Notes under the pieces: generated by a model
The model's database searches: none
Told to the model about the DNA's origin: nothing
What the model saw: the letters and a program-made list of their open reading frames with translations, nothing else
Source: Phycisphaeraceae bacterium
GTDB taxonomy: Bacteria > Planctomycetota > Phycisphaerae > Phycisphaerales > Phycisphaeraceae
Direction: 5' to 3'
Assembly: GCA_020851735.1 (NCBI GenBank)
Contig: JADZCD010000022.1
Location: 6,438-70,437 of the forward strand
Length of the DNA stretch: 64,000 nucleotides
Program-made: the position numbers and the translations under genes
Shown: piece after piece, positions 2,361-63,530 of the stretch
Layout: every line of letters starts with the position of its first letter
How positions within the stretch are numbered: position 1 is the first letter of the stretch

Positions 2361-2510
2361 GTACCCCCCGGCAGAGCCGGGGGCTGAAATGGGGGAGGTT
2401 GGGAGAACGCACACAGCACTTCCGGAGGCCCGGAAGATGCTGTGTGGCACCCGACGGGGGGAGTTGAGGGATTTCGGGGGCGGGGTCGGGGACTTCCGGG
2501 ATTCCGGGGG
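2361..2510. repeat. mosaic of short repeat modules (hairpin B, hairpin C, CTTCCGGG units)
   Basis: Three modules are present. GTACCCCCCGGCAGAGCCGGGGGCTGAA (2361-2388). The nested palindrome CACACAGCACTTCCGGAGGCCCGGAAGATGCTGTGTG (2410-2447). GACTTCCGGGATTCCGGGGG (2491-2510). The same modules recur at 18222, 26175, 31648, 45749 and 51596. Confidence 0.85.
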
Positions 2511-18094: not shown

Positions 18095-19021
18095 GTGAAA
18101 TCACCGCCGACGCCTCATCGACTTTGGTTATATCGCCAGGCTGTGCAGGACCCCGCGGCCGAGGTCGATCTGTTAGGCAGGATTTATGAGCACTATCGGG
18201 GCGGGGGGGCGGCGTATGGGCGTACCCCCCGGCACCCCCGGCACCCCCGGCACCCCCGGAATAGCCGGGGGCTGAACCGAGGGAAGGTGCGAAAGGACTT
18301 CCCCGGGGGGAAAAACTTCCGGGGTGGGCTGCTATTGCGCGAGGACTATGCCGGGACGTGCGCGGTGGCGGCGGCGTGGGTGGGTTCGCATCCAAACCGT
18401 CAGGCGGTGGCGGTGGATTGGGACCAGCGCGTGCTTAAGTGGGCGTGGCGGGAAGCGCAAAATGAAATAGGACCGCGGGCCGAAGAGGATCTGCACCTGG
18501 TGTGCGCCGACGTGCGGACATTTCGCGGGCCGCGGATCGACGTCGTCGCGGCGGGCAACTTCAGCGTGTTCTTTCATCACGACGGGCGGGCACTGCGGAA
18601 GTATTTTAAGAATCTGCGGGCGAGCCTGCGTCCGGGCGGGGTGGCGGTGGTCGACGCCTTCGGCGGGCCGGGGGCGATGCGCGTCATGCGGCAGACGCAG
18701 CCCATGCGGCTGCCCGACGGCAAGCGGGGCCGTTATGTCTGGGAGCAGAAATCCTTTGACGCGGTGACGGGACGGGTGGATTGCCGAATCCATTTCGAAC
18801 TGCCGGGCGGGAAGATATTGCGTAACGCGTTTGTTTACGACTGGCGGCTGTGGACCTTGCCGGAGCTGACCGAAGCCATGATCGACGCGGGATTTGCCAA
18901 GGCGGAAGTTTGGAGTGACCGCTATGACCCAAAGCGCAGCCAGAGCGATGGGATCTATCAGCCCATGAGTCGCATGCCGGCGCGCGAGGACTGGGTGGCC
19001 TGCGTGGTGGGCGTGCGATAA
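18095..19021 (+). CDS. class I SAM-dependent methyltransferase with a repeat insert
   Basis: LREDYAGTCAVAAAWV..AVAVDWD..ADVR..VVAAGNFSV is a methyltransferase fold pattern. Residues GGAAYGRTPRHPRHPRHPRNSRGLNRGKVRKDFPGGKNFRGG are encoded by repeat DNA. Confidence 0.7.
   Translation: MKSPPTPHRLWLYRQAVQDPAAEVDLLGRIYEHYRGGGAAYGRTPRHPRHPRHPRNSRGLNRGKVRKDFPGGKNFRGGLLLREDYAGTCAVAAAWVGSHPNRQAVAVDWDQRVLKWAWREAQNEIGPRAEEDLHLVCADVRTFRGPRIDVVAAGNFSVFFHHDGRALRKYFKNLRASLRPGGVAVVDAFGGPGAMRVMRQTQPMRLPDGKRGRYVWEQKSFDAVTGRVDCRIHFELPGGKILRNAFVYDWRLWTLPELTEAMIDAGFAKAEVWSDRYDPKRSQSDGIYQPMSRMPAREDWVACVVGVR
18222..18324. repeat. hairpin-B variant plus CTTCCGGGG units inside a CDS
   Basis: GTACCCCCCGG(CACCCCCGG)x3 AATAGCCGGGGGCTGAA ... 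GACTTCCCCGGGGGGAAAAACTTCCGGGG. Confidence 0.85.
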
Positions 19022-24890: not shown

Positions 24891-24928
24891 CTATTACATC
24901 GGAAATGCGAGGTTGGGCGGGGCCAAAA

Positions 24929-31095: not shown

Positions 31096-31975
31096 CGAAT
31101 AACGCGGTTCCCACGCGCACCAGGTTGGCGCCTTCCTCGATGGCCACCATAAAGTCACCGCTCATGCCCATCGACAACAGATCGAAATGCCCACCCAGCG
31201 CCGGGCGCCCGCGCAGTTCAGCGAACAACTCCGCGCCGCGGGCGAATATCGGCCGGGCGTTTTCCGGGTTGTCGCTGTAAGGAGCCATGGTCATCAGCCC
31301 CCGCACACGCAGTCCCGGCAAGCGGGCGGCATAGTCCACCAGGTTTCTTGCTTCGGCCAGACTCGCCCCGTGCTTGCTCTCTTCCCCGCTGATGTTCACT
31401 TCGATCAAGACATCCAGACGCTCCCAGGCGTCGCTCGGCCCAACCGCGTCGTCCAGGCCGCGGGCCTGCTGGGCTGCTTCGTTTAGTTTCTCAGCCAGAC
31501 GCACGCTGTCGACGCCATGAATCAACGCGGCCAACCCCATCACCGCCTTGGCTTTGTTCCTCTGTAAATGACCGATCATGTGCCACCGCACCCCCCCCGC
31601 CCCCGGAAGGCCCGGAAGTCCCGGAAGTGATCTTGACCGGTCCGCCTGTAAAGCCCCCGGATCTGCCGGGGGGTGCGTCCCCGCCCCCCCACTGCCTTGT
31701 TCGCGTTTTCCGGCTTCGATCGGTTCAATCACCGGAGGCCAGCCGCCGGCAGCCAACTCGCTTGCTCGCTGGCTGAGCTGCTGGACACGGTTCTCCCCTA
31801 AGTGTCTGTGGCCGATCTCCAGGAGCTCTCGAATCTGACCCATCGACGCGCTCTTGGTCACCGCCACCAGACGCACCGAATCCGCCGGCCGATGGCTGCG
31901 GGCCGCCGCCGCCGCGATCTGCTCCATGACTCGTTGATATGCCTGCCGCATCAGAACCCGATATTTTACCCCCAC
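31070..31975 (-). CDS. yggS: YggS-family pyridoxal-phosphate homeostasis protein with an internal repeat insert
   Basis: VAVTKS..GENRVQQL..WHMIGHLQRNK..LRGLMTMAP..LSMGMSGDF..GANLVRVGTALFG. About 55 extra residues lie between GENRVQ and WHMIGHLQ. Confidence 0.85.
   Translation of the reverse strand: MGVKYRVLMRQAYQRVMEQIAAAAARSHRPADSVRLVAVTKSASMGQIRELLEIGHRHLGENRVQQLSQRASELAAGGWPPVIEPIEAGKREQGSGGAGTHPPADPGALQADRSRSLPGLPGLPGAGGVRWHMIGHLQRNKAKAVMGLAALIHGVDSVRLAEKLNEAAQQARGLDDAVGPSDAWERLDVLIEVNISGEESKHGASLAEARNLVDYAARLPGLRVRGLMTMAPYSDNPENARPIFARGAELFAELRGRPALGGHFDLLSMGMSGDFMVAIEEGANLVRVGTALFGPPRPPGS
31589..31680. repeat. CCGGAAG units plus hairpin-B variant inside yggS
   Basis: CCCCCCCCGCCCCCGGAAGGCCCGGAAGTCCCGGAAGTG..AAAGCCCCCGGATCTGCCGGGGGGTGC. 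Confidence 0.85.
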
Positions 31976-44205: not shown

Positions 44206-44283
<78 letters not shown>

Positions 44284-47223: not shown

Positions 47224-47239
47224 TGTTCCACGTGGAACA
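47224..47239. promoter_or_regulatory. parS site 1, TGTTCCACGTGGAACA
   Basis: Perfect 16-bp palindrome, one base from the canonical parS TGTTNCACGTGAAACA. It lies 200 nt upstream of parB. Confidence 0.8.
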
Positions 47240-47326
47240 AGACTGCATAGCTTGCGAAGTTCACCGTCTTGATCAGTCCATTCAAACGACTGCTGGCTGT
47301 CGTTTTTTCTTTACCCTCCGCTGCGA

Positions 47327-47343
47327 TGTTCCACGTGGAAACA
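47327..47343. promoter_or_regulatory. parS-like site 2, TGTTCCACGTGGAAACA
   Basis: Equals the canonical TGTTCCACGTGAAACA with one extra G. It lies 96 nt upstream of parB. Confidence 0.6.
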
Positions 47344-47438
47344 ATTTGTCCGTCGAACTGGTTGCGTGGAGCGCCTTGCTTTGTAGACTTGGCTGCGATG
47401 ACCACGGCCGGAAATCCTCATTGACAAGGAGGTCGAGC

Positions 47439-51448: not shown

Positions 51449-52520
51449 GATGCAGCTCCAAAAAAATGTCCTCCAGATTCAAATCCTCCACCTCCACCCG
51501 CACCGGCCAACGCGCCTCGATCGCCGCCACCAACTCCGGCCCCGCCCCGCGCACCGTCCAAATCTCCCGCCCCTCGCCCCTCTCCCTCCTGATCACCCCC
51601 GGAATCGCCCCCGGAAGTGTCCCCGGAAGTGCTCGTGAACGTTCCGCCGGTTTAGCCCCCGGCTCTGCCGGGGGGTACGTTCTCCCACCTTCCACCCCCG
51701 GAAGCGCCCCCGCCCCCGGAAGCAAATCATTTGGGTGCCACACAGCAGCGCGCAGCGTGCTGTGTGCTGTCCTGCCCTCCACCCCCGTTATCTCCGGCAG
51801 CGCACCGCCGGGGTCTTTGGGATAAACGCACAACCGCTTGACCTGGTCCTTCAGCTCATCCAACTCCCCGCAGTAATCGATCTTCCCGCCCTTAAGAATC
51901 GCCACGCGGTCCGCCACGCGCTCTAAGTCCGAGGTAATGTGCGTGGAGAACAGCACCGTCCGCTCCCCGCCTCCTTGGCCGATGATCTCCAGCAGCATGC
52001 GCAAAAAATCCCGCCGCCCCACCGGGTCCAGACTCGCCGCCGGCTCATCAAGCACCAGCAGCCGCGGCTCATGCCCCATCGCCAGCAAAATGCCCAGACG
52101 CTGCAATTCCCCCGGCGACAGCTTCCCCACCTTCGTTTCCGTGTTGATCTCCAGCCGCTCCCCCAGCCGCTGCGCCAGCGCCTGATTCCACTTTGGATAA
52201 AAGCTGGCCGTATACGCCATCACCTGCCGGGCCGTCATCCACGGATACAGCGCGATCTCCTGCGGCACGTAGCCAAGCTGCCCCTTGCTGGCCGGGCTTA
52301 AATCCCACGAATCCTCCCCGAACACCGTCGCCCGCCCGCCTTGCAGACGCAGCAATCCCAGCGCGCACTTGAGCAGCGTCGTTTTCCCCGTGCCGTTCTT
52401 GCCCAACAGCCCCATCACCGTCCCGGCCGGCACCGAGAGGTTCAACTCGTCCAGCACCGGCGGATTGGCCCGTTTAAACCCTTTGGTCACGCCCGCAAGC
52501 TCCATGATCTTCTCACTCAC
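51441..52520 (-). CDS. ABC transporter ATP-binding protein with a long C-terminal repeat insert
   Basis: Walker A GKNGTGKTT, signature LSPGELQRL, Walker B LLVLDEP and an H-loop STH. About 90 residues near the C-terminus are encoded by repeat modules. Confidence 0.9.
   Translation of the reverse strand: MSEKIMELAGVTKGFKRANPPVLDELNLSVPAGTVMGLLGKNGTGKTTLLKCALGLLRLQGGRATVFGEDSWDLSPASKGQLGYVPQEIALYPWMTARQVMAYTASFYPKWNQALAQRLGERLEINTETKVGKLSPGELQRLGILLAMGHEPRLLVLDEPAASLDPVGRRDFLRMLLEIIGQGGGERTVLFSTHITSDLERVADRVAILKGGKIDYCGELDELKDQVKRLCVYPKDPGGALPEITGVEGRTAHSTLRAAVWHPNDLLPGAGALPGVEGGRTYPPAEPGAKPAERSRALPGTLPGAIPGVIRRERGEGREIWTVRGAGPELVAAIEARWPVRVEVEDLNLEDIFLELHHA
51596..51770. repeat. mosaic (CCCCGGAAG units, hairpin B, hairpin C) inside the ABC ATPase CDS
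   Basis: CCCCCGGAATCGCCCCCGGAAGTGTCCCCGGAAGTGC..TTTAGCCCCCGGCTCTGCCGGGGGGTAC..CCACCCCCGGAAGCGCCCCCGCCCCCGGAAGC..GGTGCCACACAGCAGCGCGCAGCGTGCTGTGTGCTG. Confidence 0.9.
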
Positions 52521-53813: not shown

Positions 53814-53832
53814 GTTTGTCTTCCTTCAGCTG

Positions 53833-53943
53833 TAGCCCCGCATGGAAATGCGGGGCCGGCTTGGTAATTCTCCGGGGGCCACTTCCGGGGTAGCTTCCGG
53901 GGGGCACTTCCGGGGGACCTTCCGGGGGACCTTCCGGGGGGGG
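53833..53943 (+). repeat. element A copy 1 (hairpin + CGGCTTGG + CTTCCGGGG array)
   Basis: TAGCCCCGCATGGAAATGCGGGGCCGGCTTGGTAATTCTCCGGGGGCCACTTCCGGGGTAGCTTCCGGGGGGCACTTCCGGGGGACCTTCCGGGGGACCTTCCGGGGGGGG. Confidence 0.92.
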
Positions 53944-54054
53944 CCAACTTCAAACATCCAACTCTTAAATCTCCCAACCCCCATCCATCTCTTTTCACAC
54001 TCTTCTTAAGAAAACTCGGGTACAATAAAGCGCGCCCGCCGTAGTGAAATCCTT

Positions 54055-54768
54055 GTGCGAATTCAGTTGGGGATGATTCCAATGGCCTTGCCTCAAATGC
54101 CTGTTTACTGTCGCCCACAAGCCTTCGGGTTATTCGCCCAAAGCGTGGCTGCCTTGGCGACCGACCGCAAGGCATTATTGCGCGCTTCGGTGGCCATTGC
54201 CCAGCATGAACTGCCCGAAGCCGATCCCCAGCGCGTCGAAGAAGTGCTCGACGAGTGGGCCGCCATCATCCGTGCCCGCACCGCCAGCGGGCAGGAGCGG
54301 GCCCTGCTCGCCCATCTGCACGAATTCCTTTTTGAGGAACTCGGCCTGGCCGGCAACGTCGACGACTATTACAACCCTTTAAACAGCTACATCCCCGCCG
54401 TATTGGAGCTGCGCAAGGGCATCCCCATCAGCCTGGCCATGATCTATTGCGAGGTCGGCCGGCGCGTGGGACTCTTAACCGAGGGCATCAACTCCCCCGG
54501 CCATTTCCTCGCCCAGATCGAGGCGGCCGGCGACCGCATGCTCGTCGACGTCTTCGCCCGCGGGCGAATCCTCACCCCGCAGCAAGCCGTCAAGCGCATC
54601 GACCAGGCCGTGGGCATCGTCATCCCCAGCTCGGAAAACATGTTCGTCCCCGCTGACGGCAAGCAGTGGCTCGCCCGCATGCTGCAGAACCTCATGCACA
54701 TCTTCACCGAGCGCGGACAGGACAGCGATCAAGCCGCCATGGGCGAAATGCTCGCCCTGGTCGCCTAA
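54055..54768 (+). CDS. transglutaminase-like / SirB1-family protein
   Basis: YYNPLNSYIPAVLELRKGIPISLAMIYCEVGRRVGLLTEGINSPGHFL resembles the SirB1/YchA family core. The start is uncertain. Confidence 0.65.
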   Translation: MRIQLGMIPMALPQMPVYCRPQAFGLFAQSVAALATDRKALLRASVAIAQHELPEADPQRVEEVLDEWAAIIRARTASGQERALLAHLHEFLFEELGLAGNVDDYYNPLNSYIPAVLELRKGIPISLAMIYCEVGRRVGLLTEGINSPGHFLAQIEAAGDRMLVDVFARGRILTPQQAVKRIDQAVGIVIPSSENMFVPADGKQWLARMLQNLMHIFTERGQDSDQAAMGEMLALVA

Positions 54769-54854
54769 GAATCCGCCGCCACCCACCTATAGCGGTCCTT
54801 CACGCAGCGAACACAACCCCCAGAGCGCGGCAGTGGGTTCTATTGCCCGCGGGC

Positions 54855-54906
54855 AACTTCCCGGGGCAGTGCCGATTTTCAGGGGACTTCCGGGGGGGGG
54901 GGGGGT
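54855..54906. repeat. CTTCCGGGG-type units and a G-run
   Basis: CAACTTCCCGGGGCAGTGCCGATTTTCAGGGGACTTCCGGGGGGGGGGGGGG. Confidence 0.8.
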
Positions 54907-55154
54907 CAAAACGTTGCATCAATTCTGAATAAGGACCCTGAAAAACCGCGGGATTAATCGCGAAAAAAGTGGTTACTGTCATTTGGCGGGGATAAACTAT
55001 AACTGTCGTTTTGAGGGTGGCAGGCAGTGGTCGCCGCGGCTGATTCCTGAAAAAAAGTTTTGTCAGCGCTTCAATCCCCATCGCCGTCGTTTCAGCCGCG
55101 TGATCGAAATGATCATCTGGATCTTTGGCAGGGAACAAAGAGAGGACGACAGCA

Positions 55155-57320
55155 GTGAACGTGCGGGCATGGACGACCGTGCTGGTTATGTTGCCTTTCT
55201 GGTGCGCCGCCGACGCCGCCGCCCAGGCCATGCCGCGCATCGAGTCCCGCGCCGGCGGATTCTTCGACGCCCAGACCAGCCAACCGTTCTCCATGCGGGG
55301 CTTCAACTACATCCAGCTCTTTGACGATCGCGCCTGGCACGCCACCTTCGCGCCCGGCCTGTACGACCCCCAGCAAGCCGAAGCCGCCCTGGAAGAAATG
55401 GGCCGGCACGGATTCACCGTCGCCCGCGTCTTTATCGATCACGAAGCGCCCAACGGCGTCGTCACCTCCACGAGCGCCACCGAGCTCTCGCCCGTTTACA
55501 TGGACAACTTCGTCGACTTCCTTTCCCGCGCCCGGTCCCACGGCCTACGCGTCATTCCCTCGCTGGTCTATCTGGCCCAGACCAACGCCTACGCCCAGAT
55601 CATCGGGCCGTATGAGCCGGGCATCGAAAACATCAACCGCTATACCCTCGACGACGGATTCATCGCCGCCAAGGCCGCCTACGCCGCGGATTTCGTCAAC
55701 GCCGTCAAAGCCCGCGACGCCAGCCTGCTCTCGACCGTCTTCGCTTACGAATTGGAAAACGAAGCGAACATGACCGATCAGGCCAAACCCTTCTCCCAGA
55801 CCTCCGGGACCATCAGCAACACCGCCAGCGGCATCACCTACGACCTTTCCTCACCCGCCCAGAAACAGCAGTTGGCCGACGACAACACCGTCGTCTGGGC
55901 CGACACCGTCGCCGCCGCCATTCGCCAGGCCGACCCCGCCGCCATGGTCAGCGTCAACGTCTTTACCTATCAGGCCGTCGGGCGCACCGGCCCGGGCTTT
56001 ACCAGCGGGTCAGCCTGGAATGACGAGCGCTTCCCCGCCCGCCCGCTGGCGCTCCTGGACGCCAATCTGGATTACGTCGACGTGCATTTTTATCCCTTTA
56101 ACGACAACACCCTCACCGGTGACTTAGCCAGCATCGAATACGACGCCCTGATCGCCAAGTCCGCCCAGACCGGCATCCCCTTGGTCAGCGGCGAATTCGG
56201 GGCCTTTAAGAGCGCGTACCCGAACATCAACCTCGCCGCCCGCAAAATGCGCCAGCACATGGAAAGCGTCAACGCCAATGGCTTCGTCGGGCAGATGCTC
56301 TGGACCTATGACACCGACGCCCAGACCTTCCTGTGGAACGCCCGCTCCAATCGCGGCGAGATTTTCCAGGCCGTCTTCGCCACCTATCGCAAGCTCGATC
56401 GCTCCACCGCCCCCGTCGTCCAGGAAGCCTTCAGCTCCAGCAATCCCGCCGGAACACTGGAAGGAAAAAAGTCCGACTTAGGCGGCGTCCTCTGGGCCGG
56501 CGGCAGCGCCCTGCACGTGGCTGACGGCTTGCTGCGCCGCGAAGGCAGTAGTGGGGGGGTGGCCGCCGTCGTGCCCTACAACCCCAGCGCGGAAGAAATC
56601 ATCCGCCTCTACGGGCGTGTCAAATCGCCCTCCGGCAGCGCCGACTGGGTCGGCCTGGGCCTGACCGATCGCGTGGCCGGCGACGACGCCTTCTGGAACG
56701 ACGGGTCCCTCTGGATGCTCCTGCGCGGCAACGGCAATTACGAAGCCTGGATCGACGGCGTCAACATGTCCCTGTTGCCCAATCATCCCGACGCCCCCAG
56801 ATTCGCCCTCGGCGCCTGGAACGACCTGGAACTGATCTACGACGTCGGCCGCAACTGGGTCTGGCTGCTGATCAACGGCCAACCCGTCCTGGAAAAACAC
56901 GAATTAGGCTCCCTGGTCATCCCCGTGCTCGGCGCGGGACTGCACCTGTTTGCCGACGGCGCGGAAGTCAGTGATTTTGAACTCAACCTCCTGCCTTGCT
57001 TCTCCACCTTGGCCGGCGATTTCAACGCCGACGACCTGGTGACGCTCAGCGACGTCAATCCCTTTAAGTTAGCCCTGACCGACGAATCCGCCTTCGCCCA
57101 GGCCTATCCCGGCCTGCGCGCCAACCTGGTCGATCCCAATGGCGACGGCCTGGTGACCCTAAGCGATATCGCCGCCTTCAAAACCTTGTTAGCGCACGGC
57201 TCCATCTCCGTGCCCGAGCCCAGGTTCGTGGAACTGATCGCCGCGGCGCTGATCATCGCAGCCCTTCTGGGTAAGCGATCGCACTACAGGAAGGAAAAGG
57301 GAGGAATCAGGGGTCCGTGA
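55155..57320 (+). CDS. secreted GH5-like (clan GH-A) glycosidase with dockerin-like repeats and a PEP-CTERM anchor
   Basis: FAYELENEANM (acid/base NE) and SGEFGAF (nucleophile). Two dockerin/EF-hand-like repeats, GDFNADDLVTLSDVN and DPNGDGLVTLSDIA. C-terminus VPEPRFVELIAAALIIAALLGKR. I prefer the GTG start at 55155 because it gives a signal peptide; the track starts at a TTG at 55125. Confidence 0.7.
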   Translation: MNVRAWTTVLVMLPFWCAADAAAQAMPRIESRAGGFFDAQTSQPFSMRGFNYIQLFDDRAWHATFAPGLYDPQQAEAALEEMGRHGFTVARVFIDHEAPNGVVTSTSATELSPVYMDNFVDFLSRARSHGLRVIPSLVYLAQTNAYAQIIGPYEPGIENINRYTLDDGFIAAKAAYAADFVNAVKARDASLLSTVFAYELENEANMTDQAKPFSQTSGTISNTASGITYDLSSPAQKQQLADDNTVVWADTVAAAIRQADPAAMVSVNVFTYQAVGRTGPGFTSGSAWNDERFPARPLALLDANLDYVDVHFYPFNDNTLTGDLASIEYDALIAKSAQTGIPLVSGEFGAFKSAYPNINLAARKMRQHMESVNANGFVGQMLWTYDTDAQTFLWNARSNRGEIFQAVFATYRKLDRSTAPVVQEAFSSSNPAGTLEGKKSDLGGVLWAGGSALHVADGLLRREGSSGGVAAVVPYNPSAEEIIRLYGRVKSPSGSADWVGLGLTDRVAGDDAFWNDGSLWMLLRGNGNYEAWIDGVNMSLLPNHPDAPRFALGAWNDLELIYDVGRNWVWLLINGQPVLEKHELGSLVIPVLGAGLHLFADGAEVSDFELNLLPCFSTLAGDFNADDLVTLSDVNPFKLALTDESAFAQAYPGLRANLVDPNGDGLVTLSDIAAFKTLLAHGSISVPEPRFVELIAAALIIAALLGKRSHYRKEKGGIRGP

Positions 57321-57602
57321 GGTGTGGTGGTCGCGGAGGGAAGTCTGTCCGGGATCCGGGTCGGGGAGTAGGAGAGTCGTGGCGGGGGGATGCCGCGTCA
57401 GGGGAGTGGGTGGGAATGGCAGGGTAGGGCCGTGAGGAGTGGGGGGGGCGTGGGCCGGCCGAATGGCGCCGGCTCGGGGAGGTCGCGATAGAGGGGGCCG
57501 GAGTTCGAGGGAGCCGGGCAGGGGAACCTGCCTCCGGGAGGCGCCGGGGAGCGGGGGAAATGTTTAGCGGCGGTTCGCAGAACCGCGCGCGAATGTCCGG
57601 GG

Positions 57603-57683
57603 GCACTTCCGGGGGCGACGATAGCCCCGCATGGAAATGCGGGGCCGGCTTGGTTACTTCCGGGGTTACTTCCGGGCGTACTT
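57603..57683 (+). repeat. element A copy 2
   Basis: GCACTTCCGGGGGCGACGATAGCCCCGCATGGAAATGCGGGGCCGGCTTGGTTACTTCCGGGGTTACTTCCGGGCGTACTTCCGGGGGGGG. Confidence 0.92.
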
Positions 57684-57705
57684 CCGGGGGGGGATTTATC
57701 GGCTA

Positions 57706-57739
57706 AGCCCCAGCAGGACGCTGGGGCTGAGTTTTTTTA
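57706..57739 (+). terminator. rho-independent terminator-like hairpin
   Basis: AGCCCCAGC-aggac-GCTGGGGCT followed by GAGTTTTTTTA. It shares the CTAAGCCCCAGC arm with the long inverted repeat at 63225-63309. Confidence 0.6.
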
Positions 57740-57766
57740 TCAACGCGCCGCCCGCTCGCCGCGCCG

Positions 57767-60421
57767 TCACATCAACGTCACCGGGTCCACGTCCACAGCC
57801 GTATGCGCGTCGGACTTAAGCACCCGGGCATTGCGCAGCCCCGTCAGCAACTTCTGCAAGCGCGACGCGTCCGGGGCAAGCACCTGGATTTCCTGCCGGT
57901 GAAACTGATTAATCCGCGCAATCGGACAAGGCATCGGCCCCTGCACGCGGGCGCCGGTCTGCATCTGCTTTTCCATGGCCGCCAGCGCCTCGGCCAGCTT
58001 CCGCCCATGGGCCAGGCAAGCCTCCAAGTCACGATCGCGCACCACAATCCGCGCCAGCCGCGTGATCGGCGGCAGATTCACCTGCTTGCGCAGCGCCAGC
58101 TCGCCCCGGGCAAACTCGTCAAAATCATGCTTGGCCGCCAAGGTGATCGCCAACTCCCTGGGACTGAACGATTGCACCACCACCAGCCCCGGATGCCCAC
58201 CCTTCCCGCCGCGCCCCGCCCGCCCCGCCACCTGCGCCACCAGTTGAAACGTCCGCTCCGACGCCCGGAAGTCCGGCATGTTCAGCGCCGTGTCCGCCGA
58301 GATCACCCCCACCAGCTGCACATTGGGAAAATCCAACCCCTTGGCGATCATCTGCGTCCCCAGCAGCACCTGCAGCTCGCCCCGCCCAAACGCCTTCAGC
58401 GCCGCCTGATAGTCCCCGCTGGTGCTCATCGTGTCCGAGTCCATCCGCAGCAGCGTCACGCCCGGAAACTTCTTGCCCATCTCCTCCTCCACCCGCTGCG
58501 TGCCCAACCCGAACACCACCACCTTCTTCCCGCACACCGGGCAGACACGCGGCAGCAACTGCTCGGCCCCGCAGTGATGACACCGCACCAGCCCGCCGTA
58601 GGAGCTTTTCTGCCCAGCCGAGAATTTGTGATAGATCATCAGCGCATCGCAATACGCGCAGTTGAGCATCCACCCGCAGCCATGATCCGGACACGCGATG
58701 TAATTGGCATACCCCCGCCGATTGAGCAGCAAAATCGCCTGCCCGCCGTTCGCCATCGTCTGCCTCAGCGCCCCCTCCAGCCGCATGCTCAGCAGATGCA
58801 CCCCGCGCCTTAATTTGCGCTCTTCCTTTAAATCCACGATCTCCACCCGCGGCAATTTCAAGCCCGTCACGCGCTCCGGCAGGCGATGCAGCACATACCC
58901 CCGCCCCGATTCCGCCGTCGTGTTGTAATACGATTCCAGGCTCGGCGTGGCGGACCCCAGCACCACCGGAATATCCAGCAGCTGCGCCCGCCGCACCGCC
59001 ACGTCCCGCGCGTGATAACGCGGCAGCTGATCCTGCTTGTAGCTGCCGTCGTGCTCCTCGTCGACAATGATCACCGCCAGATTCGCCAGCGGCGCAAAAA
59101 TCGCCGACCGCGCCCCGACCACAATCCGCGCCTGGCCCGTCCGTATCCGCCGCCATTGCTCATGCCTCTGGGCCGCACTCAACCCCGAATGCAATACCGC
59201 CACCGTCGCCCCAAAACGCCCGTAAAACCGCGCCACCGTCTGCGGCGTAAGCGCAATCTCCGGCACCAACACAATCGCCCCCGGAAGTGCTCCCCCCCCT
59301 GAAGTGCCCCCGGAAATGTCGGATCGTTTAGCGGGCGATCGCAGATCGCCGTCTCCGTTGCCATTGAGCAAATGCTCAATAACCCGCAGATACACTTCCG
59401 TCTTCCCCGACCCCGTCACCCCGTGCAGCAGGTGCACGGAAAATCCCTTGTGAATTGAATCCGCGATCCGATCCAACGCCGCACGCTGATGTTCGGATAG
59501 CTCCAGCCCCACCCCCGCTGCCGCGCCGCCGCCAACGTCGCCCCCCGCCTTAGGCGCCGAAATAAAACTCAACATCGGATCCACCGCCCGCACCGTCGGA
59601 CGAATCGACGACTCCAATAGTCCCATCTCGATCAGCCGCCGCAGCGGCGCCGTGGTTTTCGCACCCGCCAAATCCGCCAACGCACGCAACTCAATCCACC
59701 CCCCCTCATGTTCCCCCTCAATCCCCCCCTCGCTTCCCCCCTCGTCTCCCCCGCCATCCTGCCCCGCTCTGGCCTGCTCAGCGCGTTGGCACGCCACCTC
59801 CAACGCCCTTTTTTGCAGGGCGGAAATTCGAGGCGGTTTCCGCGAACCCCCCTGATCCCGCGCCGACGCGGCATCACTTCCGTCACTTCCGGGGGTACTG
59901 CTTCCAGCGGTAGCCCCGCATGGAAATGCGGGGCCGGCTTGGCTACTTCCGGGGTCACTTCCGGGGGGGAAGCGGACGAACGTTTGCAGCGTCGTGCCTG
60001 TGCCGTGTTTCACTGCCGCCGGCAGCATCGTCACCAGCACCATGCCCAGCGGGCAGCAGTAATACGACGCCAGCCAGCGTGCCAGCTCGATCAAGTCCTT
60101 GGTCAGCGACAGTCCCATCGGGTCGCGTCCCTGGATCGCCTTGATGGCATGCGGCTTTTGCGTTTGGGCCGGCTGCTGGGTGGTGACCTGGAGGATATAA
60201 CCCGACACAGCTTTATTGTTCTTACCCAACGGCACGACCACCCGATCGCCCACGCCCAAGTCAGACAGGTGTCCAGGCACAGCGTACGTCAGCCCATCGG
60301 GCCCGATATCCACCCCCTGTTCGAGCGCCACCAGCGCGAATCCGCAGCCATCGCCCGGCAGCGCGCCCAATGCCTTTGGGCCCGTGTCTGGAGCAGGAGA
60401 GTTATCAAACAAGCCAGCCAT
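57767..60421 (-). CDS. priA: primosomal protein N' (PriA helicase) with two repeat inserts
   Basis: LLHGVTGSGKTEVYL..VLVPEIALTPQ, DEEHD, the Cys-rich zinc region CPDHGC..CAYC..CHHCG..CPVCG, and QVAGRAGR. I chose the start at 60421 (MAGLFDN). Confidence 0.93.
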   Translation of the reverse strand: MAGLFDNSPAPDTGPKALGALPGDGCGFALVALEQGVDIGPDGLTYAVPGHLSDLGVGDRVVVPLGKNNKAVSGYILQVTTQQPAQTQKPHAIKAIQGRDPMGLSLTKDLIELARWLASYYCCPLGMVLVTMLPAAVKHGTGTTLQTFVRFPPGSDPGSSQAGPAFPCGATAGSSTPGSDGSDAASARDQGGSRKPPRISALQKRALEVACQRAEQARAGQDGGGDEGGSEGGIEGEHEGGWIELRALADLAGAKTTAPLRRLIEMGLLESSIRPTVRAVDPMLSFISAPKAGGDVGGGAAAGVGLELSEHQRAALDRIADSIHKGFSVHLLHGVTGSGKTEVYLRVIEHLLNGNGDGDLRSPAKRSDISGGTSGGGALPGAIVLVPEIALTPQTVARFYGRFGATVAVLHSGLSAAQRHEQWRRIRTGQARIVVGARSAIFAPLANLAVIIVDEEHDGSYKQDQLPRYHARDVAVRRAQLLDIPVVLGSATPSLESYYNTTAESGRGYVLHRLPERVTGLKLPRVEIVDLKEERKLRRGVHLLSMRLEGALRQTMANGGQAILLLNRRGYANYIACPDHGCGWMLNCAYCDALMIYHKFSAGQKSSYGGLVRCHHCGAEQLLPRVCPVCGKKVVVFGLGTQRVEEEMGKKFPGVTLLRMDSDTMSTSGDYQAALKAFGRGELQVLLGTQMIAKGLDFPNVQLVGVISADTALNMPDFRASERTFQLVAQVAGRAGRGGKGGHPGLVVVQSFSPRELAITLAAKHDFDEFARGELALRKQVNLPPITRLARIVVRDRDLEACLAHGRKLAEALAAMEKQMQTGARVQGPMPCPIARINQFHRQEIQVLAPDASRLQKLLTGLRNARVLKSDAHTAVDVDPVTLM
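59277..59316. repeat. CCGGAAG units inside the priA helicase core
   Basis: CGCCCCCGGAAGTGCTCCCCCCCCTGAAGTGCCCCCGGAAATG, encoding ..ISGGTSGGGALPGA.. between Walker A and the VLVPEIALTPQ strand. Confidence 0.85.
59874..59968 (+). repeat. element A copy 3, entirely inside the priA CDS
   Basis: TCACTTCCGTCACTTCCGGGGGTACTGCTTCCAGCGGTAGCCCCGCATGGAAATGCGGGGCCGGCTTGGCTACTTCCGGGGTCACTTCCGGGGGGG, read on the minus strand as ..PPGSDPGSSQAGPAFPCGATAGSSTPGSDGSD.. Confidence 0.92.
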
Positions 60422-60562
60422 GGTGTTCTGGTTTATCAGGAAATATTGCTGAAGGTTATGTCCAGGAAAGACTTGTAACTTACCCGCCCGTCCCCAGCCT
60501 CCGCCCGCCGCCTGCGGAAGGTATTCCAGGCGCGCTTCCGGCGGCACATCCGGGTCCCCGAC

Positions 60563-60797
60563 TAGCCCCGCATGGAAGAACGCTAGGCATCATTGGAAGA
60601 CGTCCAAGCATTTAGCCGCAGATAAACGCAGATGAACACTAGACATGGAGTTCTTGGATCCCATCTGCGTTTATCAGCGTTCATCTGCGGCCATATTGAA
60701 TCCTGATCTGAAATCATCTCGTTAATGCATAACGTTCGGAAATACGGGGCCGGCTTAGTTGCTTCTGCGAGGCACTTCCGGGGGCGCTTCCGGGGGG
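60563..60797 (+). repeat. element A copy 4, with its hairpin interrupted by a family-D inverted-repeat element
   Basis: TAGCCCCGCATGGAA | about 160 nt including GCCGCAGATAAACGCAGATGAAC..CATCTGCGTTTATCAGCGTTCATCTGCGGC | GGAAATACGGGGCCGGCTTAG, then CACTTCCGGGGGCGCTTCCGGGGGG. Confidence 0.85.
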
Positions 60798-60866
60798 TAT
60801 TGTACGGAGATTCACGCTCATCGTTGCGCTGGGCCGATGAGACTTTTGTTTGTGTGAAAGGCCGTC

Positions 60867-61112
60867 ATGGCAGGTAAGCGTGACAGGACGGATGTGAACT
60901 GTTGTCCCTTCATCGACCACGATGATGCCCGATGCGCCAAGCACTTCACCTTCCGCTGGCTTAACGAAGCATTCAATCTCTGCGCCAATGATTACCGCCA
61001 ATGCCCGACCTACGGGCAAATCCGCGCGGAAGCCCAGCGGGCCCGGGTGGTCGTTACCCTCCAAGGCCGACCCGTCAGCCAAGAACCGGGGCTACGAAGC
61101 GCCGCTTCGTGA
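60867..61112 (+). CDS. small Cys-rich hypothetical protein (81 aa)
   Basis: MAGKRDRTDVNCCPFIDHDDARCAKHFTFRWLNEAFNLCANDYRQCPTY has five Cys and coding-like codon usage. It overlaps the 5' part of the recombinase ORF in another frame. Confidence 0.4.
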   Translation: MAGKRDRTDVNCCPFIDHDDARCAKHFTFRWLNEAFNLCANDYRQCPTYGQIRAEAQRARVVVTLQGRPVSQEPGLRSAAS

Positions 61113-61980
61113 CTTTATCGGCTATTGCCGCGTCGAATGCGGATTCGCCCAGGCGACCTTGCGGGCCTATGCCTCCGACTTAGTCGAGCTGCAGCTCTGG
61201 ATGCAAGCCTTAGGCGAGCAAAGCTGGAAGGGACTGACCGCCAAGCGCCTGGCCGAGCACGTCCAAGCCCTGCATCACCGCGGTTTAGCCATCAGCTCCA
61301 TCGCCCGTCACGTCGCCACCATCCGCGTCTTCGGGCGCTACTTAAAATGGCTGGAAGAAGTCGCCGAGGACCCCGCCGATCTGCTTGAACAGCCCAAGGG
61401 TTGGCAGCGCGTGCCCGAAGTGCTCAGCGTCCAGCGGATGCGCAGCATTTTGGAGGCCCCCAGCCAGGAAGACGTGCTGCGTCTGCGTGACGCAGCCATT
61501 CTCGAACTGCTCTACGCCGGCGGGCTGCGGGCCAGCGAATTGGCGGATCTGGACCGCGTCCGCCTGCACCTGGACCTGGGCATCGTCCGGGTCGTGGGCA
61601 AGGGCAACCGCGAGCGCGTGGTGCCCGTGGGCAAGCCCGCCATGCTGGCCGTCAAAACTTATCTGGCCGAGCTTCGTCCCAAGCTCCAGCGCGAAGACCG
61701 CATCACCGATCGGCTGTTTCTCTCCCGCACCGGGCACCCGATCACCCGCATCGTCGTCTGGCAGATCGTCAGCAAATACGCCCGCCGCGCCGGCCTGCGC
61801 GACGTCCACCCCCACACCCTGCGCCACTCCTTCGCCACGCACCTGCTCGCCGGCGGGGCCGACCTCCGCATCGTTCAGGAAATGCTCGGGCACGCCAACA
61901 TCAAAACCACCCAGATCTACACCCACGTCGACCGCAGCCGCCTTAAAGACGTCATCCGCAAATTTCACCCCCGCGGGTAA
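60988..61980 (+). CDS. tyrosine site-specific recombinase XerC/XerD type
   Basis: N-terminal SAM-like domain (FIGYCRVECGFAQATLRAYASDL). The catalytic region has LLYAGGLRASEL, HTLRHSFATHLL, LGHANIKTTQIYTHV (R..HxxR..H..Y). The start is uncertain: the in-frame ATGs are at 60922, 60925 and 60988, and there is none closer to the conserved core. Confidence 0.85.
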   Translation: MITANARPTGKSARKPSGPGWSLPSKADPSAKNRGYEAPLRDFIGYCRVECGFAQATLRAYASDLVELQLWMQALGEQSWKGLTAKRLAEHVQALHHRGLAISSIARHVATIRVFGRYLKWLEEVAEDPADLLEQPKGWQRVPEVLSVQRMRSILEAPSQEDVLRLRDAAILELLYAGGLRASELADLDRVRLHLDLGIVRVVGKGNRERVVPVGKPAMLAVKTYLAELRPKLQREDRITDRLFLSRTGHPITRIVVWQIVSKYARRAGLRDVHPHTLRHSFATHLLAGGADLRIVQEMLGHANIKTTQIYTHVDRSRLKDVIRKFHPRG

Positions 61981-62079
61981 TAGCCCCAACGTCACGAATT
62001 CGCGATGGTTTCGTCAAGCCCAGGCATCGCCATGCCTCGGTCGCCTTTTTCCCGGCGGTCATTCTCAGGACCCCCCCCC

Positions 62080-63015
62080 TCACTCCTCGCCAATCCGCAA
62101 AATCTGACTCTGCACCTCCTCATCGAGCGTCTGCTCGAGCGTCTGCCCCTGCACGCGGATGGTCGTCTGCAGCGTAAAGTGCAGCTGGTTGTTGCGCCCG
62201 ACCGCTTCGTGACGCTGCAAGTCCCAGAGCACCTGTTGTTCCGACGATCCTTCCGTCAGCCGCACGGACGACCCCGCCGGCAGACGCGCCACGCGCTGCG
62301 CGTCGGGCTCAAAACGCACCTTCGCCTGTCCCTGCACCGTGGCGATGGGAATGTCCGCGATCGTCTCCACGCCCGCTAGGGAAAAAGTCGTGTCGTACGT
62401 CAACTGCCCCATCTCATGCGACCGCGCAAACGTGAAGGGCCACTTCTGGCCCACCTTCAACTCCGCCGGCCCGCCGGCCAGAATCGCCGTGTCGTAAACG
62501 CTTTTGGTCAAATCCGATTCATCGACCGACTTGGCCATCGCCTCCTCCAGCTTGCCGCGGATCGCCTCCACGCCGCTGATCTTGTCCACCACCGCGTCCG
62601 GCGACAGCTCCACCCGGATCGGCGCGCCCGCCATCGCCCGGATGACCTGCCACAGCGCCGCCGGCTCGCCCGAGGATTGCCGGCTGTCGATGGTCATGCG
62701 CCGCCCGTCCGCCGTCGTCAGGTCCGCCTTGATCCAATCCATCACATACGTCGCCGTCGCCGCTCCGTCCGCCGCCACCGTGTCAATCGTCCAGGTGATT
62801 TGGCCCTGAAAAATCACTTCATGCCGCGTCTGCTGCCGTTGCCCCCTGGCCTCCAATGCCTGCCTGGACGATCGCCGCGTCCAGAACTCGTACCGGCTGG
62901 TGCGCCCAGCCTCAAACCGCGGACGAAGATCGTAAACCTCCCGCGCCTCCTGCGCCGGCACAGCCCAAGAGAGCATCAGCAGCAGGCAGAGCGTGGCTGA
63001 GAAAATTGTTTTCAT
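62080..63015 (-). CDS. secreted hypothetical protein
   Basis: Signal peptide MKTIFSATLCLLLMLSWAVPAQEA. No recognisable motif. Confidence 0.55.
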   Translation of the reverse strand: MKTIFSATLCLLLMLSWAVPAQEAREVYDLRPRFEAGRTSRYEFWTRRSSRQALEARGQRQQTRHEVIFQGQITWTIDTVAADGAATATYVMDWIKADLTTADGRRMTIDSRQSSGEPAALWQVIRAMAGAPIRVELSPDAVVDKISGVEAIRGKLEEAMAKSVDESDLTKSVYDTAILAGGPAELKVGQKWPFTFARSHEMGQLTYDTTFSLAGVETIADIPIATVQGQAKVRFEPDAQRVARLPAGSSVRLTEGSSEQQVLWDLQRHEAVGRNNQLHFTLQTTIRVQGQTLEQTLDEEVQSQILRIGEE

Positions 63016-63140
63016 GGCTGTTCCATAGAAAAAACAGGACACATCAAACCGCAGTGCGGCCAGGGTCAGTCCGTGGTCCGATCGCGATCAATTAATGATA
63101 GCTGCCCACGCGGATCGTTGACGCCATCGCTTGCCGGAGA

Positions 63141-63222
63141 ACTTCCGGGGGTGTGCAAGCCCCGCATGGAAATGCGGGGCCGGCTTGGTCCCTTCCGGGG
63201 CCACTTCCGGCGTCACTTCCGG
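63141..63222 (+). repeat. element A copy 5
   Basis: ACTTCCGGGGGTGTGCAAGCCCCGCATGGAAATGCGGGGCCGGCTTGGTCCCTTCCGGGGCCACTTCCGGCGTCACTTCCGG. Confidence 0.92.
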
Positions 63223-63224
63223 CC

Positions 63225-63309
63225 GGGTGGCTGGGGCTAAGCAATGCGTGCCCTAGGGCCTTGTTCTCGATAGTCCCGCTGGGGCACGAAGACTTAGCCC
63301 CAGCCACCC
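63225..63309. repeat. perfect 17-bp inverted repeat GGGTGGCTGGGGCTAAG / CTTAGCCCCAGCCACCC with a 51-nt loop
   Basis: Arms at 63225-63241 and 63293-63309. There is an inner CGTGCCC/GGGCACG pairing. Confidence 0.9.
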
Positions 63310-63375
63310 AGCCGAACGTTATGACTCAAGTTAGAGCGTCAAAAATTAACCGCAAATAGAGTTTTTGCATCGGAA

Positions 63376-63530
63376 CTGCGTTTATCTGCGTTTATCTGCG
63401 GCCATTTGAATTCCTGGTCTGAAGTTATCGCGATGAGGCATCATGTTCGGAAATGCGGGGCCGGCTTAGGCACTTCCGGGGCACTTCAGGTGAACGTCCG
63501 GGGCCACTTCCGGCGTCAACTTCCGGGGGG
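63376..63530 (+). repeat. family-D right arm fused to an element A right half (copy 6)
   Basis: CTGCGTTTATCTGCGTTTATCTGCGGCCATTTGAATTCCTGGTCTGAAGTTATCGCGATGAGGCATCATGTTCGGAAATGCGGGGCCGGCTTAGGCACTTCCGGGGCACTTCAGG..CCACTTCCGGCGTCAACTTCCGGGGGGG. It is nearly collinear with 60662-60797. Confidence 0.88.

Follow-up and report, generated by a model that had tools for sequence, protein, structure and literature searches.

Why a short hairpin joined to tandem repeats should recur six times in one orientation within 10 kb is the question raised by the 64-kb window (i.e., the whole stretch of Phycisphaeraceae DNA analysed here). We consider it reasonably probable that this module, element A, is a REP of the planctomycete RayT/TnpA-REP type, joined in the manner of a BIME to a second, independent repeat.

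Element A and its six copies

The core of element A spans 33 nt and comprises an NNAG tag, an 8/9-bp CCCCGCAT/ATGCGGGG stem, a GGAA loop and CGGCTTRG. Four intact copies, one split copy and one right half lie between 53.8 and 63.5 kb, all on the + strand as the first-pass annotation had stated; the copy it placed at 60563 is, however, not intact but holds 160 nt in its loop, and the starts it gave at 57603, 59874 and 63141 are those of upstream CTTCCGG units rather than of hairpins (Table 1). The hairpin TAGCCCCGCATGGAAATGCGGGGC is exact at 53833, 57622 and 59911 and has one mismatch at 63157, all on the + strand, against an expectation of 0 from shuffles. Its right half with the linker, AATGCGGGGCCGGCTTRG, was found six times where 0.33 were expected, again only on the + strand (53847, 57636, 59925, 60741, 63171 and 63452), and the left half additionally at 60563. 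A 9-bp stem is predicted for each copy, counting in copy 1 the closing G-C pair. The stem always starts with CCCC and the unpaired tag ends in AG, with GTAG in only two of five copies and ATAG, CTAG and CAAG in the remainder. The cores sit within (NNNCTTCCGGGG)n arrays; the core is identical among four copies, and the flanks and unit numbers vary.

Table 1 Coordinates of element A, its arrays and associated hairpins in the window.
Feature	Position	Strand	Description
Hairpin C copy	2361..2389	-	tag TCAG on - strand; positive-skew domain; adjoined by hairpin B and more units at 2405-2510
Hairpin C copy	18249..18277	-	tag TCAG on - strand; positive-skew domain; beside (CCCCCGGCA)x3.8
Composite with hairpin C	31588..31765	-	AAAG-CCCCCGG-atctg-CCGGGGG (tag on + strand, 31650) and three units
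Composite in C-terminal tail of ABC ATPase ORF	51590..51790	-	hairpin B, 2 units, hairpin C (tag TTAG on + strand at 51652), 3 units
Copy 1 core	53832..53864	+	tag GTAG, stem CCCCGCAT/ATGCGGGG, loop GGAA, linker CGGCTTGG; end ~20 nt upstream of the start codon of PPK2, which is on the opposite strand
Copy 1 array	53865..53943	+	5-6 units (NNNCTTCCGGGG), G8 run at end
Copy 2	57594..57696	+	two units upstream (57594-57615), core with tag ATAG at 57621-57653, three units downstream, the last ending in G8; between convergent GH5 and PriA genes
Second hairpin	57703..57737	+	TAAG-CCCCAGC-aggac-GCTGGGG-CT, then T-run (T7)
Three-unit array in PriA	59279..59316	-	reverse-oriented, in frame, encodes ISGGTSGGGALPGA
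Copy 3	59874..59972	+	units upstream, core with tag GTAG at 59910-59942, two units downstream
Copy 4, left half	60562..60577	+	tag CTAG, left arm, loop GGAA
Nested MITE N1, 160 nt	60578..60737	+	terminal inverted repeats GAACGCTAGGCATCA and partner TAATGCATAACGTTC
Copy 4, right half	60738..60798	+	GGAA, arm ATACGGGGC (one stem base mutated), linker CGGCTTAG, 2-3 units; divergent region between PriA and small ORF-XerC/D
Copy 5	63141..63224	+	one unit upstream, core with tag CAAG at 63156-63188, three units
Inverted repeat, 17 nt	63225..63309	.	GGGTGGCTGGGGCTAAG ... CTTAGCCCCAGCCACCC
MITE N2, 135 nt	63314..63448	+	~79% identity to N1 over 121 nt
Copy 6, right half only	63449..63530	+	GGAA, arm ATGCGGGGC, linker CGGCTTAG, ~4 units, G-run at end

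The second hairpin reported after two of the copies was recovered: behind copy 2 it has the canonical shape of an intrinsic terminator and a build like the second REP type flanking a RayT-like gene in another genome (L099), and behind copy 5 its two halves face outward as an inverted repeat. The likening of element A to MITEs did not survive, as it lacks both a target-site duplication and terminal inverted repeats, features seen only in the element nested in a loop. This element, N1, was inserted in the hairpin loop of copy 4, is flanked by a GGAA duplication (i.e., the REP loop) and contains a long hairpin made of GCAGATRAAC repeats. N2 meets the REP loop at the same right-hand junction as N1, but the sequence to its left is not a REP left arm.

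The six copies are confined to 10 kb, the other 54 kb holding none, a clustering that counts against the REP reading and would suit local segmental duplication or gene conversion, in which the shared orientation would be a by-product and no mobilisation would be involved. Because the derived linker CGGCTTAG is common to both MITE-carrying copies, these two do point to one ancestor. However, flanks, unit numbers and spacers differ at each copy, one copy lies in frame inside PriA, and in another genome the hairpin occurs at scattered sites and is linked to a Y1 gene, which makes local duplication a highly improbable source of the six.

RayT-like genes flanked by the hairpin or its look-alikes in other Planctomycetota

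The first-pass annotation had proposed REP-like non-autonomous modules, and this part of its reading stood: in another Planctomycetota MAG, AS06rmzACSIP_458, an identical stem-loop lies on both sides of a Y1/RayT-like gene. The 20-nt hairpin of element A occurs ~45 times in this MAG with differing flanks, often as inverted doublets ~135 nt apart. Its Y1_Tnp gene matches PF01797 with 39.5 bits (cut-off 23), with HVHIV as the HUH motif and the tyrosine in RYVANQ. The identical hairpin stands upstream of the gene at 4490, 4599 and 4735 of L005 and downstream at 580, 716 and 818 of L098, loci that were fetched for containing the hairpin, in a MAG where its density is ~1 per 3 kb, which tells against the REP reading. 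Ahead of the conserved N-terminus of the L005 gene no start codon is obvious, and the gene scores 35 bits against NCBIfam cut-offs of 80 and 55; both points weigh against that reading as well.

A search for homologues of this gene gave 1893 matches, many of them named 'REP element-mobilizing transposase RayT' by JGI. Among six further homologue loci, five (L099, L100, L102, L104 and L106) have AG-tagged CCCC-stem hairpins of the same build on both sides, L103 being the sole exception. The hairpin of L104 (TAAG CCCCCGG-cactg-CCGGGGG GTGC) is nearly equal to hairpin C of the window, and the second hairpin type of L099 matches the second hairpin of the window. Across 10 variants, stem positions 5-8 vary and Watson-Crick pairing is kept at 100%, showing covariation of the stem between genomes. 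Since the identical hairpin flanks the Y1 gene and look-alikes flank its homologues, element A is probably a REP of the planctomycete RayT clade.

No Y1/RayT gene was detected by tblastn of the L005 protein against the whole 64-kb window or by Pfam scans of the larger high-GC3 ORFs across most of it; this agrees with the earlier remark that no transposase is nearby and is a further point against the REP reading. A XerC/D-type tyrosine recombinase is encoded at ~60.9-62.0 kb.

The 12-nt arrays and what they might do

The array unit, NN-A-C|TTCCGGGG-G, is the most over-represented oligomer of the window, with 71 copies of TTCCGGGG on both strands. The arrays had been described as local and single-oriented, and neither held: near-matches to CTTCCGGGG number 112 against 32 expected, on both strands and throughout the window. 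Some arrays come after other hairpins and others stand without any hairpin; PriA, PPK1, a YggS-like gene and further ORFs, essential genes among them, also contain units in frame, and the unit reaches at least 1 per kb in several tailed-phage contigs, where no CCCC-stem REP-type hairpin adjoins the arrays. The arrays are a separate repeat for which RayT does not account, being found far from hairpins and in phage contigs too.

The hairpins and arrays were found in intergenic DNA and, as multiples of three bases, in variable protein linkers and loops. Copy 3 runs antisense and in frame inside the PriA ORF, where it encodes ...PGSDPGSSQAGPAFPCGATAGSSTPGSD... in a linker that is variable among orthologues, and the reverse-oriented PriA array directly follows the Walker A region, in a second variable linker. 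The composite at 31588-31765 is an in-frame insertion of ~48 aa in a YggS/PLPBP-like gene relative to PDB 6kzw.

Hairpins with adjacent direct repeats are also the layout of rolling-circle origins. This favours an account in which the arrays, the hairpin playing an accessory part, would be selected binding sites of a sequence-specific DNA-binding protein and not products of selfish spread, the candidates being a nucleoid-associated protein, a regulator or an iteron-plus-hairpin site for a HUH Rep-like protein. Logo and spacing show that the 9-mer is conserved while the 3-nt spacer varies freely, a pattern unlike pure slippage, and 44% of copies fall in intergenic DNA, which makes up 13% or less of the total. 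The 9-mer is also kept at 1 per kb or more in several tailed-phage contigs (GC 56-71%), where the arrays occupy short spacers directly behind a stop codon and precede the next start by 10-60 nt. Nevertheless, a large number of copies fall within ORFs, in both orientations and several frames, without a constant position or orientation relative to genes (informative tandem contexts 3 vs 1 in the window, ~10 vs 3 with the phages included). The 12-nt period does not match the helical repeat and no candidate binding protein was identified; selection for protein binding is, in our judgement, unlikely.

Action at the RNA level, with the hairpin as a 3'-end stabiliser or terminator and the arrays as Rho-loading (envisaged as C-rich), CsrA-type GGA-rich or G-quadruplex UTR tracts, would fit the stable stem, the often GNRA-like loops of related REPs (GGAA, GCAA, GTGA), the canonical terminator after copy 2 and the position of the hairpin 45 nt past a stop codon in locus L044. 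Taken on the sense strand of the gene downstream, the arrays mostly read CCCCCGGAAG with a 12-nt period, and those of at least 3 units fit a relaxed G-quadruplex pattern, providing ~21 of the 51 motifs of this kind in the window. Effects of REPs on mRNA stability are known (PMC3733652). Yet hairpin A lacks a U-tract, terminator-like and promoter-like sites at 53-64 kb are at chance level, and there was no Rfam match. Moreover, copies stand upstream, downstream, antisense and inside genes, and those in frame are not readable as UTR elements, leaving an RNA-level role quite improbable.

Orientation, GC skew and replication

The orientation of the copies had been linked to replication, with dnaA and parS said to be near. 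In fact dnaA (15150-16643) and parB (47190-48605) lie 5-38 kb off, and GC skew switches at ~25 kb with what is by usual convention terminus polarity, yet dnaA and parB are close. Arrays in the element A block are 18 on the + strand to 2 on the - strand where GC skew is -0.14, as against 9 to 26 at 26-53 kb; because both strands are used and this block opposes the local skew, a link between arrays and replication is unsupported. A hint of it persists in the hairpins, whose AG-tagged strand is - in 2/2 cases at 1-26 kb and + in 8/8 at 26-64 kb, counts that are few and come from clustered, partly related, non-independent copies. The tag strand thus flips with the sign of the skew, a weak indication of the pattern that a single-strand, fork-dependent enzyme would give.

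Skew also bears on whether the 9-mer might be a lineage-wide signal (Chi-, uptake- or polar-sequence-like) read by a conserved machine and common to phages, with the hairpins as unrelated passengers. TTCCGGGG is the top 8-mer to 10-mer of the window (1.1 per kb), the G-rich strand of 40 of the 51 copies at 1-53 kb is on the G-rich genome strand, and genuine phage structural modules, drawn from different metagenomes, carry 0.7-3.4 per kb. The element A block, however, breaks this rule, and in the closest relative found for PriA (61% identity) the copies are only single and scattered. Chi, KOPS and uptake sequences are not known to be arranged in tandem at a strict 12-nt phase. A signal of this kind is thus very unlikely.

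Relation to known REP systems

The preferred reading, that element A is a REP of the RayT type, rests on its likeness to REP/REPIN-RayT REPtrons (PMC3116915, PMC3733652, PMC8266576): the short G+C hairpin, the unpaired tag ending in AG, the CT dinucleotide directly 3' of the hairpin, dispersed copies, stems that co-vary between genomes, an intragenic copy in a replication gene, and hairpins identical (A) or near-identical (C) on both sides of RayT-like genes in other Planctomycetota. What determines RayT action, according to published work, is the AG of the tag together with a CT cleavage site (PMC8266576); REPs inside genes, especially those for replication and repair, and REPs placed inside abundant short target sequences are likewise known (PMC3733652). 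In contrast to REPtrons, the tag is NTAG/NAAG instead of GTAG, the cores sit inside tandem arrays of 12-nt units, the 64 kb contain no RayT gene, and the proteins of the clade fall under the NCBI RayT cut-off. The window copies are also single and all direct, without inverted doublets, which tells against the reading as well.

Like the BIMEs of enterobacteria, the loci are mosaics in which one short motif accompanies different hairpins (A, B, C and the second hairpin), with several modules in a row at 51.6 kb and 63.1-63.5 kb; here, though, the partner is a direct 12-nt tandem repeat, abundant alone and inside genes, and REP/iREP alternation is absent. The GTAG-23 REPs of Thermomicrobium roseum, another GC-rich genome, are inserted in a short palindrome that is abundant there and serves as the target (PMC3733652, section 7), so that the core regularly sits, as here, inside a short sequence with many REP-free copies, although the host sequence is here a direct 12-nt array rather than a small palindrome. 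Rickettsia palindromic elements (RPE), like other REPs located within genes, add loop or linker peptides to functional genes by in-frame insertion, as seen in PriA and the YggS-like gene; they differ in having no sequence relationship to the present elements, whose host is free-living and GC-rich and whose peptides are Gly/Ser/Pro-rich. Finally, in IS200/IS605 and their non-autonomous derivatives a HUH/Y1 enzyme reads hairpins on single-stranded DNA with an orientation biased by fork direction (PMC6006769), at which the tag strand hints alike, whereas element A carries no cargo and lacks a pair of left-end and right-end hairpins, its REP core being only 33 nt long.

By analogy with this enzyme family, the tagged hairpin would be recognised in single-stranded form by a small HUH/Y1 enzyme supplied in trans, which would cut at a nearby CT and rejoin the ends, so that the core is copied or moved. 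The arrays would most likely be an older, tolerated simple repeat serving as a landing site or companion motif, and hairpins and arrays alike may persist in linkers and intergenic DNA through doing little harm there.

Element A and the elements nested in it

Element A, a composite in which a 33-nt core with hairpin A, probably of the REP (repetitive extragenic palindrome) type, lies within arrays of a 12-nt unit, is a real, non-random feature of this DNA. Its hairpin TAGCCCCGCATGGAAATGCGGGGC occurs exactly at 53833, 57622 and 59911 and with one mismatch at 63157, always on the + strand, and shuffled sequence yielded zero matches. The right arm and linker CGGCTTRG are present six times in the window, all on the + strand, compared with 0.33 copies expected, and the left arm is also found at 60563. 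These counts bear out the first-pass annotation, which had described six copies on a single strand; the six lie within 10 kb of the 64-kb window, five of them intergenic and one in PriA. The invariant part is the 33-nt core, made of a four-base tag, the stem, a GGAA loop and CGGCTTRG. The stem CCCCGCAT/ATGCGGGG has 8/9 bp (9 counting the closing G-C) and encloses a loop of 4 nt, and the core tags are GTAG (twice), ATAG, CTAG and CAAG, with AG in 5/5; related hairpins carry GAAG, AAAG, CAAG or CCAG. Between two and five units NNNCTTCCGGGG start 3 nt after each core, and one to three units precede most cores. A stem is predicted in all copies, and the arrays are without significant folding.

Every copy of hairpin A is predicted to form a stem-loop palindrome within the 20-50 nt range of REPs. 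No REP pairs inverted across a short spacer, the layout of REPINs and BIMEs, were found in the window, as all hairpin-A copies lie on the + strand. Element A has neither the terminal inverted repeats nor the target-site duplication of a DDE-type MITE, and hairpin A is followed by CGGCTTGG instead of the U-run of an intrinsic terminator. Of the earlier proposal that these are REP/MITE-like modules, we keep the REP-like part, given the RayT link of the stem-loop in relatives described below, and abandon the MITE-like part. Promoter and terminator scans stayed at chance level, a tRNA scan found nothing relevant, and a scan against Rfam 15 produced no match at the gathering threshold, its sole sub-threshold match being a miRNA-precursor model on the inverted repeat at 63210-63327. 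Neither the GTDB representative genomes nor the JGI metagenomes contain the core with its linker, and a literature search for the sequence strings returned nothing. The lone metagenome match to the right half plus linker proved to be a chance match within a glycosyltransferase gene.

A MITE family has two of its three window copies among these elements; its members measure 131-160 nt, carry the 15-nt terminal inverted repeats GAACGYTAKGCATYA and enclose a long hairpin made of 10-nt GCAGATRAAC repeats. The copy at 60563 had been listed among those with a whole hairpin; this does not hold, as a 160-nt MITE splits the REP there and its 4-bp target duplication, GGAA, is the REP loop itself. Since both MITE-bearing copies of element A carry the linker variant CGGCTTAG, which is common to the two, they descend from one ancestor. 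No transposase matching the MITE family was present in the window. Next to the split REP, a small Cys-rich ORF of 81 aa without a Pfam match (60867-61112, +) sits immediately upstream of an ORF for a XerC/D-type recombinase, with which it overlaps.

Further hairpin families accompany the arrays. A second hairpin had been reported after two copies; one of these is a real stem-loop and the sole canonical terminator-like site found with an element-A copy, and at the other the 17-nt arm of this hairpin is present in inverted duplicate. Elsewhere in the window, arrays come after hairpins B and C. Hairpin B lacks the AG tag and is always followed by CTTCCGGGG units, and in one copy its loop is itself a CTTCCGG/CCGGAAG palindrome.

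Coordinates of the nested MITEs and of the further hairpins in the window
Feature	Position	Strand	Description
MITE copy 1	60578-60737		160 nt; in loop of split element-A copy at 60563; GGAA on either side
MITE copy 2	63314-63448		79% identical to first; right junction as in 60563 copy; abuts half copy at 63449
MITE copy 3	8063-8193		diverged
Second hairpin	57703-57737	+	nine-pair stem, then T-run; canonical terminator-like (57706-57737)
Second-hairpin inverted repeat	63225-63309		17-nt arm
Hairpin B	~2405-2450	+	GCACACAGCA...TGCTGTGTGGCACCC
Hairpin B	~26250-26300	-	GCACACAGCA...TGCTGTGTGGCACCC
Hairpin B	~51730-51780	-	GCACACAGCA...TGCTGTGTGGCACCC
Hairpin C			CCCCCGG-N5-CCGGGGG; accompanies arrays

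Hairpins and RayT-like genes in relatives

To our knowledge, REPs and the RayT enzymes (REP-associated Y1/HUH transposases) have been studied almost only in Proteobacteria. The bare 20-nt hairpin occurs in about 45 intergenic copies in the Planctomycetota MAG AS06rmzACSIP_458, with flanks very different from those of the window. There the hairpins mostly form inverted doublets about 135 nt apart, their loops read GGAA, GGCA or GGGA, and in one copy a change in the stem is compensated. Pfam scans of the ORFs next to hairpin clusters identified a Y1_Tnp ORF adjoining a cluster of three hairpins (PF01797, 39.5 bits against a cut-off of 23), with HVHIV as its HUH motif and its tyrosine in RYVANQ; with NCBIfam's models for RayT and IS200 the score was about 35 bits in each case, short of the cut-offs. 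In an independent assembly of that locus, three more hairpins sit directly downstream of the Y1 gene. With hairpins on both sides, the gene is bracketed in the layout of a REPtron. The RayT-like gene of this MAG (4884-5348 in L005, 216-605 in L098) keeps its conserved N-terminus (YFLTWTTYGTWLPGD...) in frame, but downstream of the stop codon that precedes it there is no ATG, GTG or TTG to start from; a pseudogene, an unusual start codon or an error in the assembly could each explain this.

The Y1 protein has 1893 relatives, many of which are named 'REP element-mobilizing transposase RayT' in JGI, and the NCBI label is Planctomycetota transposases. At five of six further loci, L103 being the exception, repeated G+C hairpins, each with an unpaired NNAG tag and a stem starting with CCCC, lie on either side of the homologue gene at a distance of up to about 100-450 nt. 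The hairpin at L104 (TAAG-CCCCCGG-cactg-CCGGGGG-GTGC) is nearly hairpin C of the window, and that at L099 (CAAG-CCCCCAGC-acc-GCTGGGGG) is built like the window's second hairpin. In a comparison of ten variants, positions 1-4 of the stem never change and positions 5-8 vary with perfect complementarity.

Published work identifies the last two tag bases (AG) and a CT cleavage site on the 5' or 3' side of the hairpin as the key determinants for RayT enzymes (PMC8266576). REPs have been found in Planctomycetes, inside genes, notably those for replication and repair, and regularly inserted in another abundant short sequence (PMC3733652). Taken together with the RayT association in relatives, these rules and surveys make REPs belonging to a planctomycete RayT-like clade the best reading of hairpin A, hairpin C and the second hairpin.

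The earlier annotation had seen no transposase near the elements. Searches with the Y1 protein and Pfam scans of ORFs revealed no Y1 gene within the 64-kb window, and RayT-like genes bracketed by such hairpins were found solely in relatives. A tblastn search with an approximate E. coli RayT sequence found nothing and missed the real Y1 gene in L005, and is thus too insensitive. As the density of element-A copies rises toward the right end of the window, the other 14 kb of the contig would be the obvious place for a Y1 gene.

The 12-nt unit in genes and phages

The 8-mer TTCCGGGG is the most frequent in the window, with 71 copies (1.1 per kb) at a modal spacing of 12 nt; each unit joins a conserved 9-mer to a freely varying 3-nt spacer. 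Intergenic DNA, at most 13% of the window, holds 44% of the 71 copies, and the remainder lie inside ORFs, in both orientations and several frames. The arrays had been presented as a local, single-orientation phenomenon, a view that does not survive the finding of units window-wide and on both strands. Given this correction and that on the split copy, the earlier description of element A is correct. The last unit of an array generally ends in a long G-run (G6-G14) or (GGGGGN)n, which makes the arrays polar, and a G14 homopolymer follows a single unit at 54892-54905.

The gene for PriA (884 aa, with every domain retained) holds copy 3 of element A in antisense orientation and in frame, and the copy contributes a peptide to a linker that differs in every orthologue; a reverse-oriented array forms a second PriA insert. 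The protein is 100% identical to MCC7145768.1, and its closest relatives (L057, L058) show no synteny and no arrays. A YggS-like protein is likewise lengthened in frame, by about 48 aa relative to PDB 6kzw, through the insertion of hairpin C with three units, so that two intact genes, those for PriA and the YggS-like protein, carry in-frame insertions relative to their orthologues. In this the composite resembles the in-frame palindromic elements of Rickettsia in behaviour only, without homology. A word-index search with peptides translated from the core found no match, though PriA itself contains such a peptide.

Low-complexity inserts are unusually common in this genome. In-frame 9-nt/12-nt tandem repeats occur at 19825-19863, 59700-59752, 18226-18259, 41803-41847 and 47866-47893, their hosts being, in that order, PPK1, PriA (a third lineage-specific insert), a methyltransferase-like ORF, a beta-lactamase-domain ORF and ParB. 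At 44206-44283, the spacer between two - strand genes holds a heptamer in perfect tandem repetition, (CGGCAAT)x11.

We also scanned IMG/VR for the arrayed unit and retained a contig only if its background density of the 9-mer was high. Most matches to the three-unit pattern were rejected as ordinary perfect coding repeats, e.g., (TPEV)n, from unrelated genomes with a GC content of 38-69%. In several contigs (GC 56-71%) the 9-mer is present in either orientation, at 0.7-3.4 per kb; L066, L068, L076, L084, L089/L095 and L097 are among them and have TTCCGGGG at 1.1-3.4 per kb. Because these contigs encode portal, protease-capsid fusion, terminase and tape-measure proteins, they represent tailed phages. 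The units sit in variable protein linkers, including the protease-capsid linker, and in short spacers directly after stop codons and 10-60 nt ahead of the next start, where they mostly read CCCCCGGAAG on the sense strand. On L068, they directly adjoin several tRNA genes at the 5' or 3' end. A hairpin scan of the phage contigs detected no CCCC-stem REP-type hairpin adjoining the arrays, its sole CCCC/GGGG-arm matches being isolated hairpins (L066 184-203, L068 2978-2994), which indicates that the 12-nt unit is independent of REP cores.

For the arrays above all, other explanations, each less probable, stand beside the REP reading. The unit could be a lineage-wide signal common to host and phages, the tandem (ACTTCCGGGGGC)n could be protein-binding sites, the elements could act at the RNA level, or the copies could result from purely local duplication. 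Each of these leaves the hairpins' link to RayT unaccounted for.

Strand bias, mechanism and implications

The GC skew is positive at 1-25 kb and negative at 26-64 kb, with a strong switch at about 24000-26500 (about +0.1 to +0.2 on the left and about -0.1 to -0.3 on the right). By the usual convention, the switch has the polarity of a terminus, in agreement with the gene-strand bias; dnaA (15150-16643) and parB (47190-48605) lie either side of it within the window. In the window, DnaA boxes are about as frequent as expected by chance and an E. coli-like dif site was not detected, so the switch at about 25 kb could be an origin or a terminus. Elsewhere in the window we observed a HEPN/nucleotidyltransferase (MNT-type) gene pair, a putative toxin-antitoxin module (22292-23009, -), a 1.1-kb stretch without a long ORF (11095-12241), and two ORFs of about 466 aa without a Pfam match (12241-13644, +; 50078-51478, -), the latter with unusually low first-position GC.

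The single orientation had been tied, as a possibility, to replication. Counts of the 9-mer on the + and - strands are 14/2 at 1-26 kb, 9/26 at 26-53 kb and 18/2 at 53-64 kb; the last falls in negative skew, and the element-A block thus runs against the skew. The arrays, present on both strands, are as such not tied to replication direction, and for array orientation relative to neighbouring genes the informative contexts are too few for a pattern. The tagged hairpins fit the claim better. The AG tag lies on the - strand at 2385 and 18273, in the positive-skew domain, and on the + strand at 31652, 51654, 53834, 57623, 59912, 60562, 63158 and 63449, in the negative-skew domain. In every case, then, the tag lies on the C-rich strand (2/0 vs 0/8, Fisher p = 0.02, with copies that are few, clustered and partly kin), a flip with GC skew that is suggestive only.

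On the likeliest reading, a RayT-like enzyme of this genome would recognise the tagged hairpin on single-stranded DNA and spread it, with the arrays serving as a pre-existing landing or companion repeat, and the co-orientation of the copies would then reflect fork-coupled activity. More speculatively, the C-T junction in every unit could mean that the arrays are products of repeated RayT cleavage and joining. We consider it improbable that all of the following hold jointly: that the REP core is inserted fork-strand-specifically, its tag flipping with GC skew; that the 12-nt units, bearing the C-T junction, are products of iterated HUH cleavage and strand transfer written beside the hairpin; and that phages of the lineage keep the 9-mer at 1 per kb or more because a trans-acting factor reads it.

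The element-A core is probably a new REP/RayT member, and descriptions of REPs in this phylum are scarce. Inverted doublets predominate in AS06rmzACSIP_458, as in REPINs and BIMEs, whereas the window copies are single and on the same strand; this arrangement, together with the fusion to a 12-nt tandem repeat and the in-frame residence in PriA, distinguishes them from known REPs. Here, our results provide 1) a concrete Planctomycetota/Phycisphaerae hairpin family tied to a widespread RayT-like clade, 2) simple hairpin rules for that clade, namely the AG tag, the CCCC stem foot and a co-varying upper stem, and 3) a case of REPs joined to a 12-nt tandem repeat, which has itself also entered essential genes in frame. 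The unit is a sequence feature common to host and phage genomes, and one that annotation pipelines will take for low-complexity protein linkers. Finally, there is a hint that REP orientation tracks the replication strand, which, if true, would be genomic evidence of fork-coupled REP mobility.
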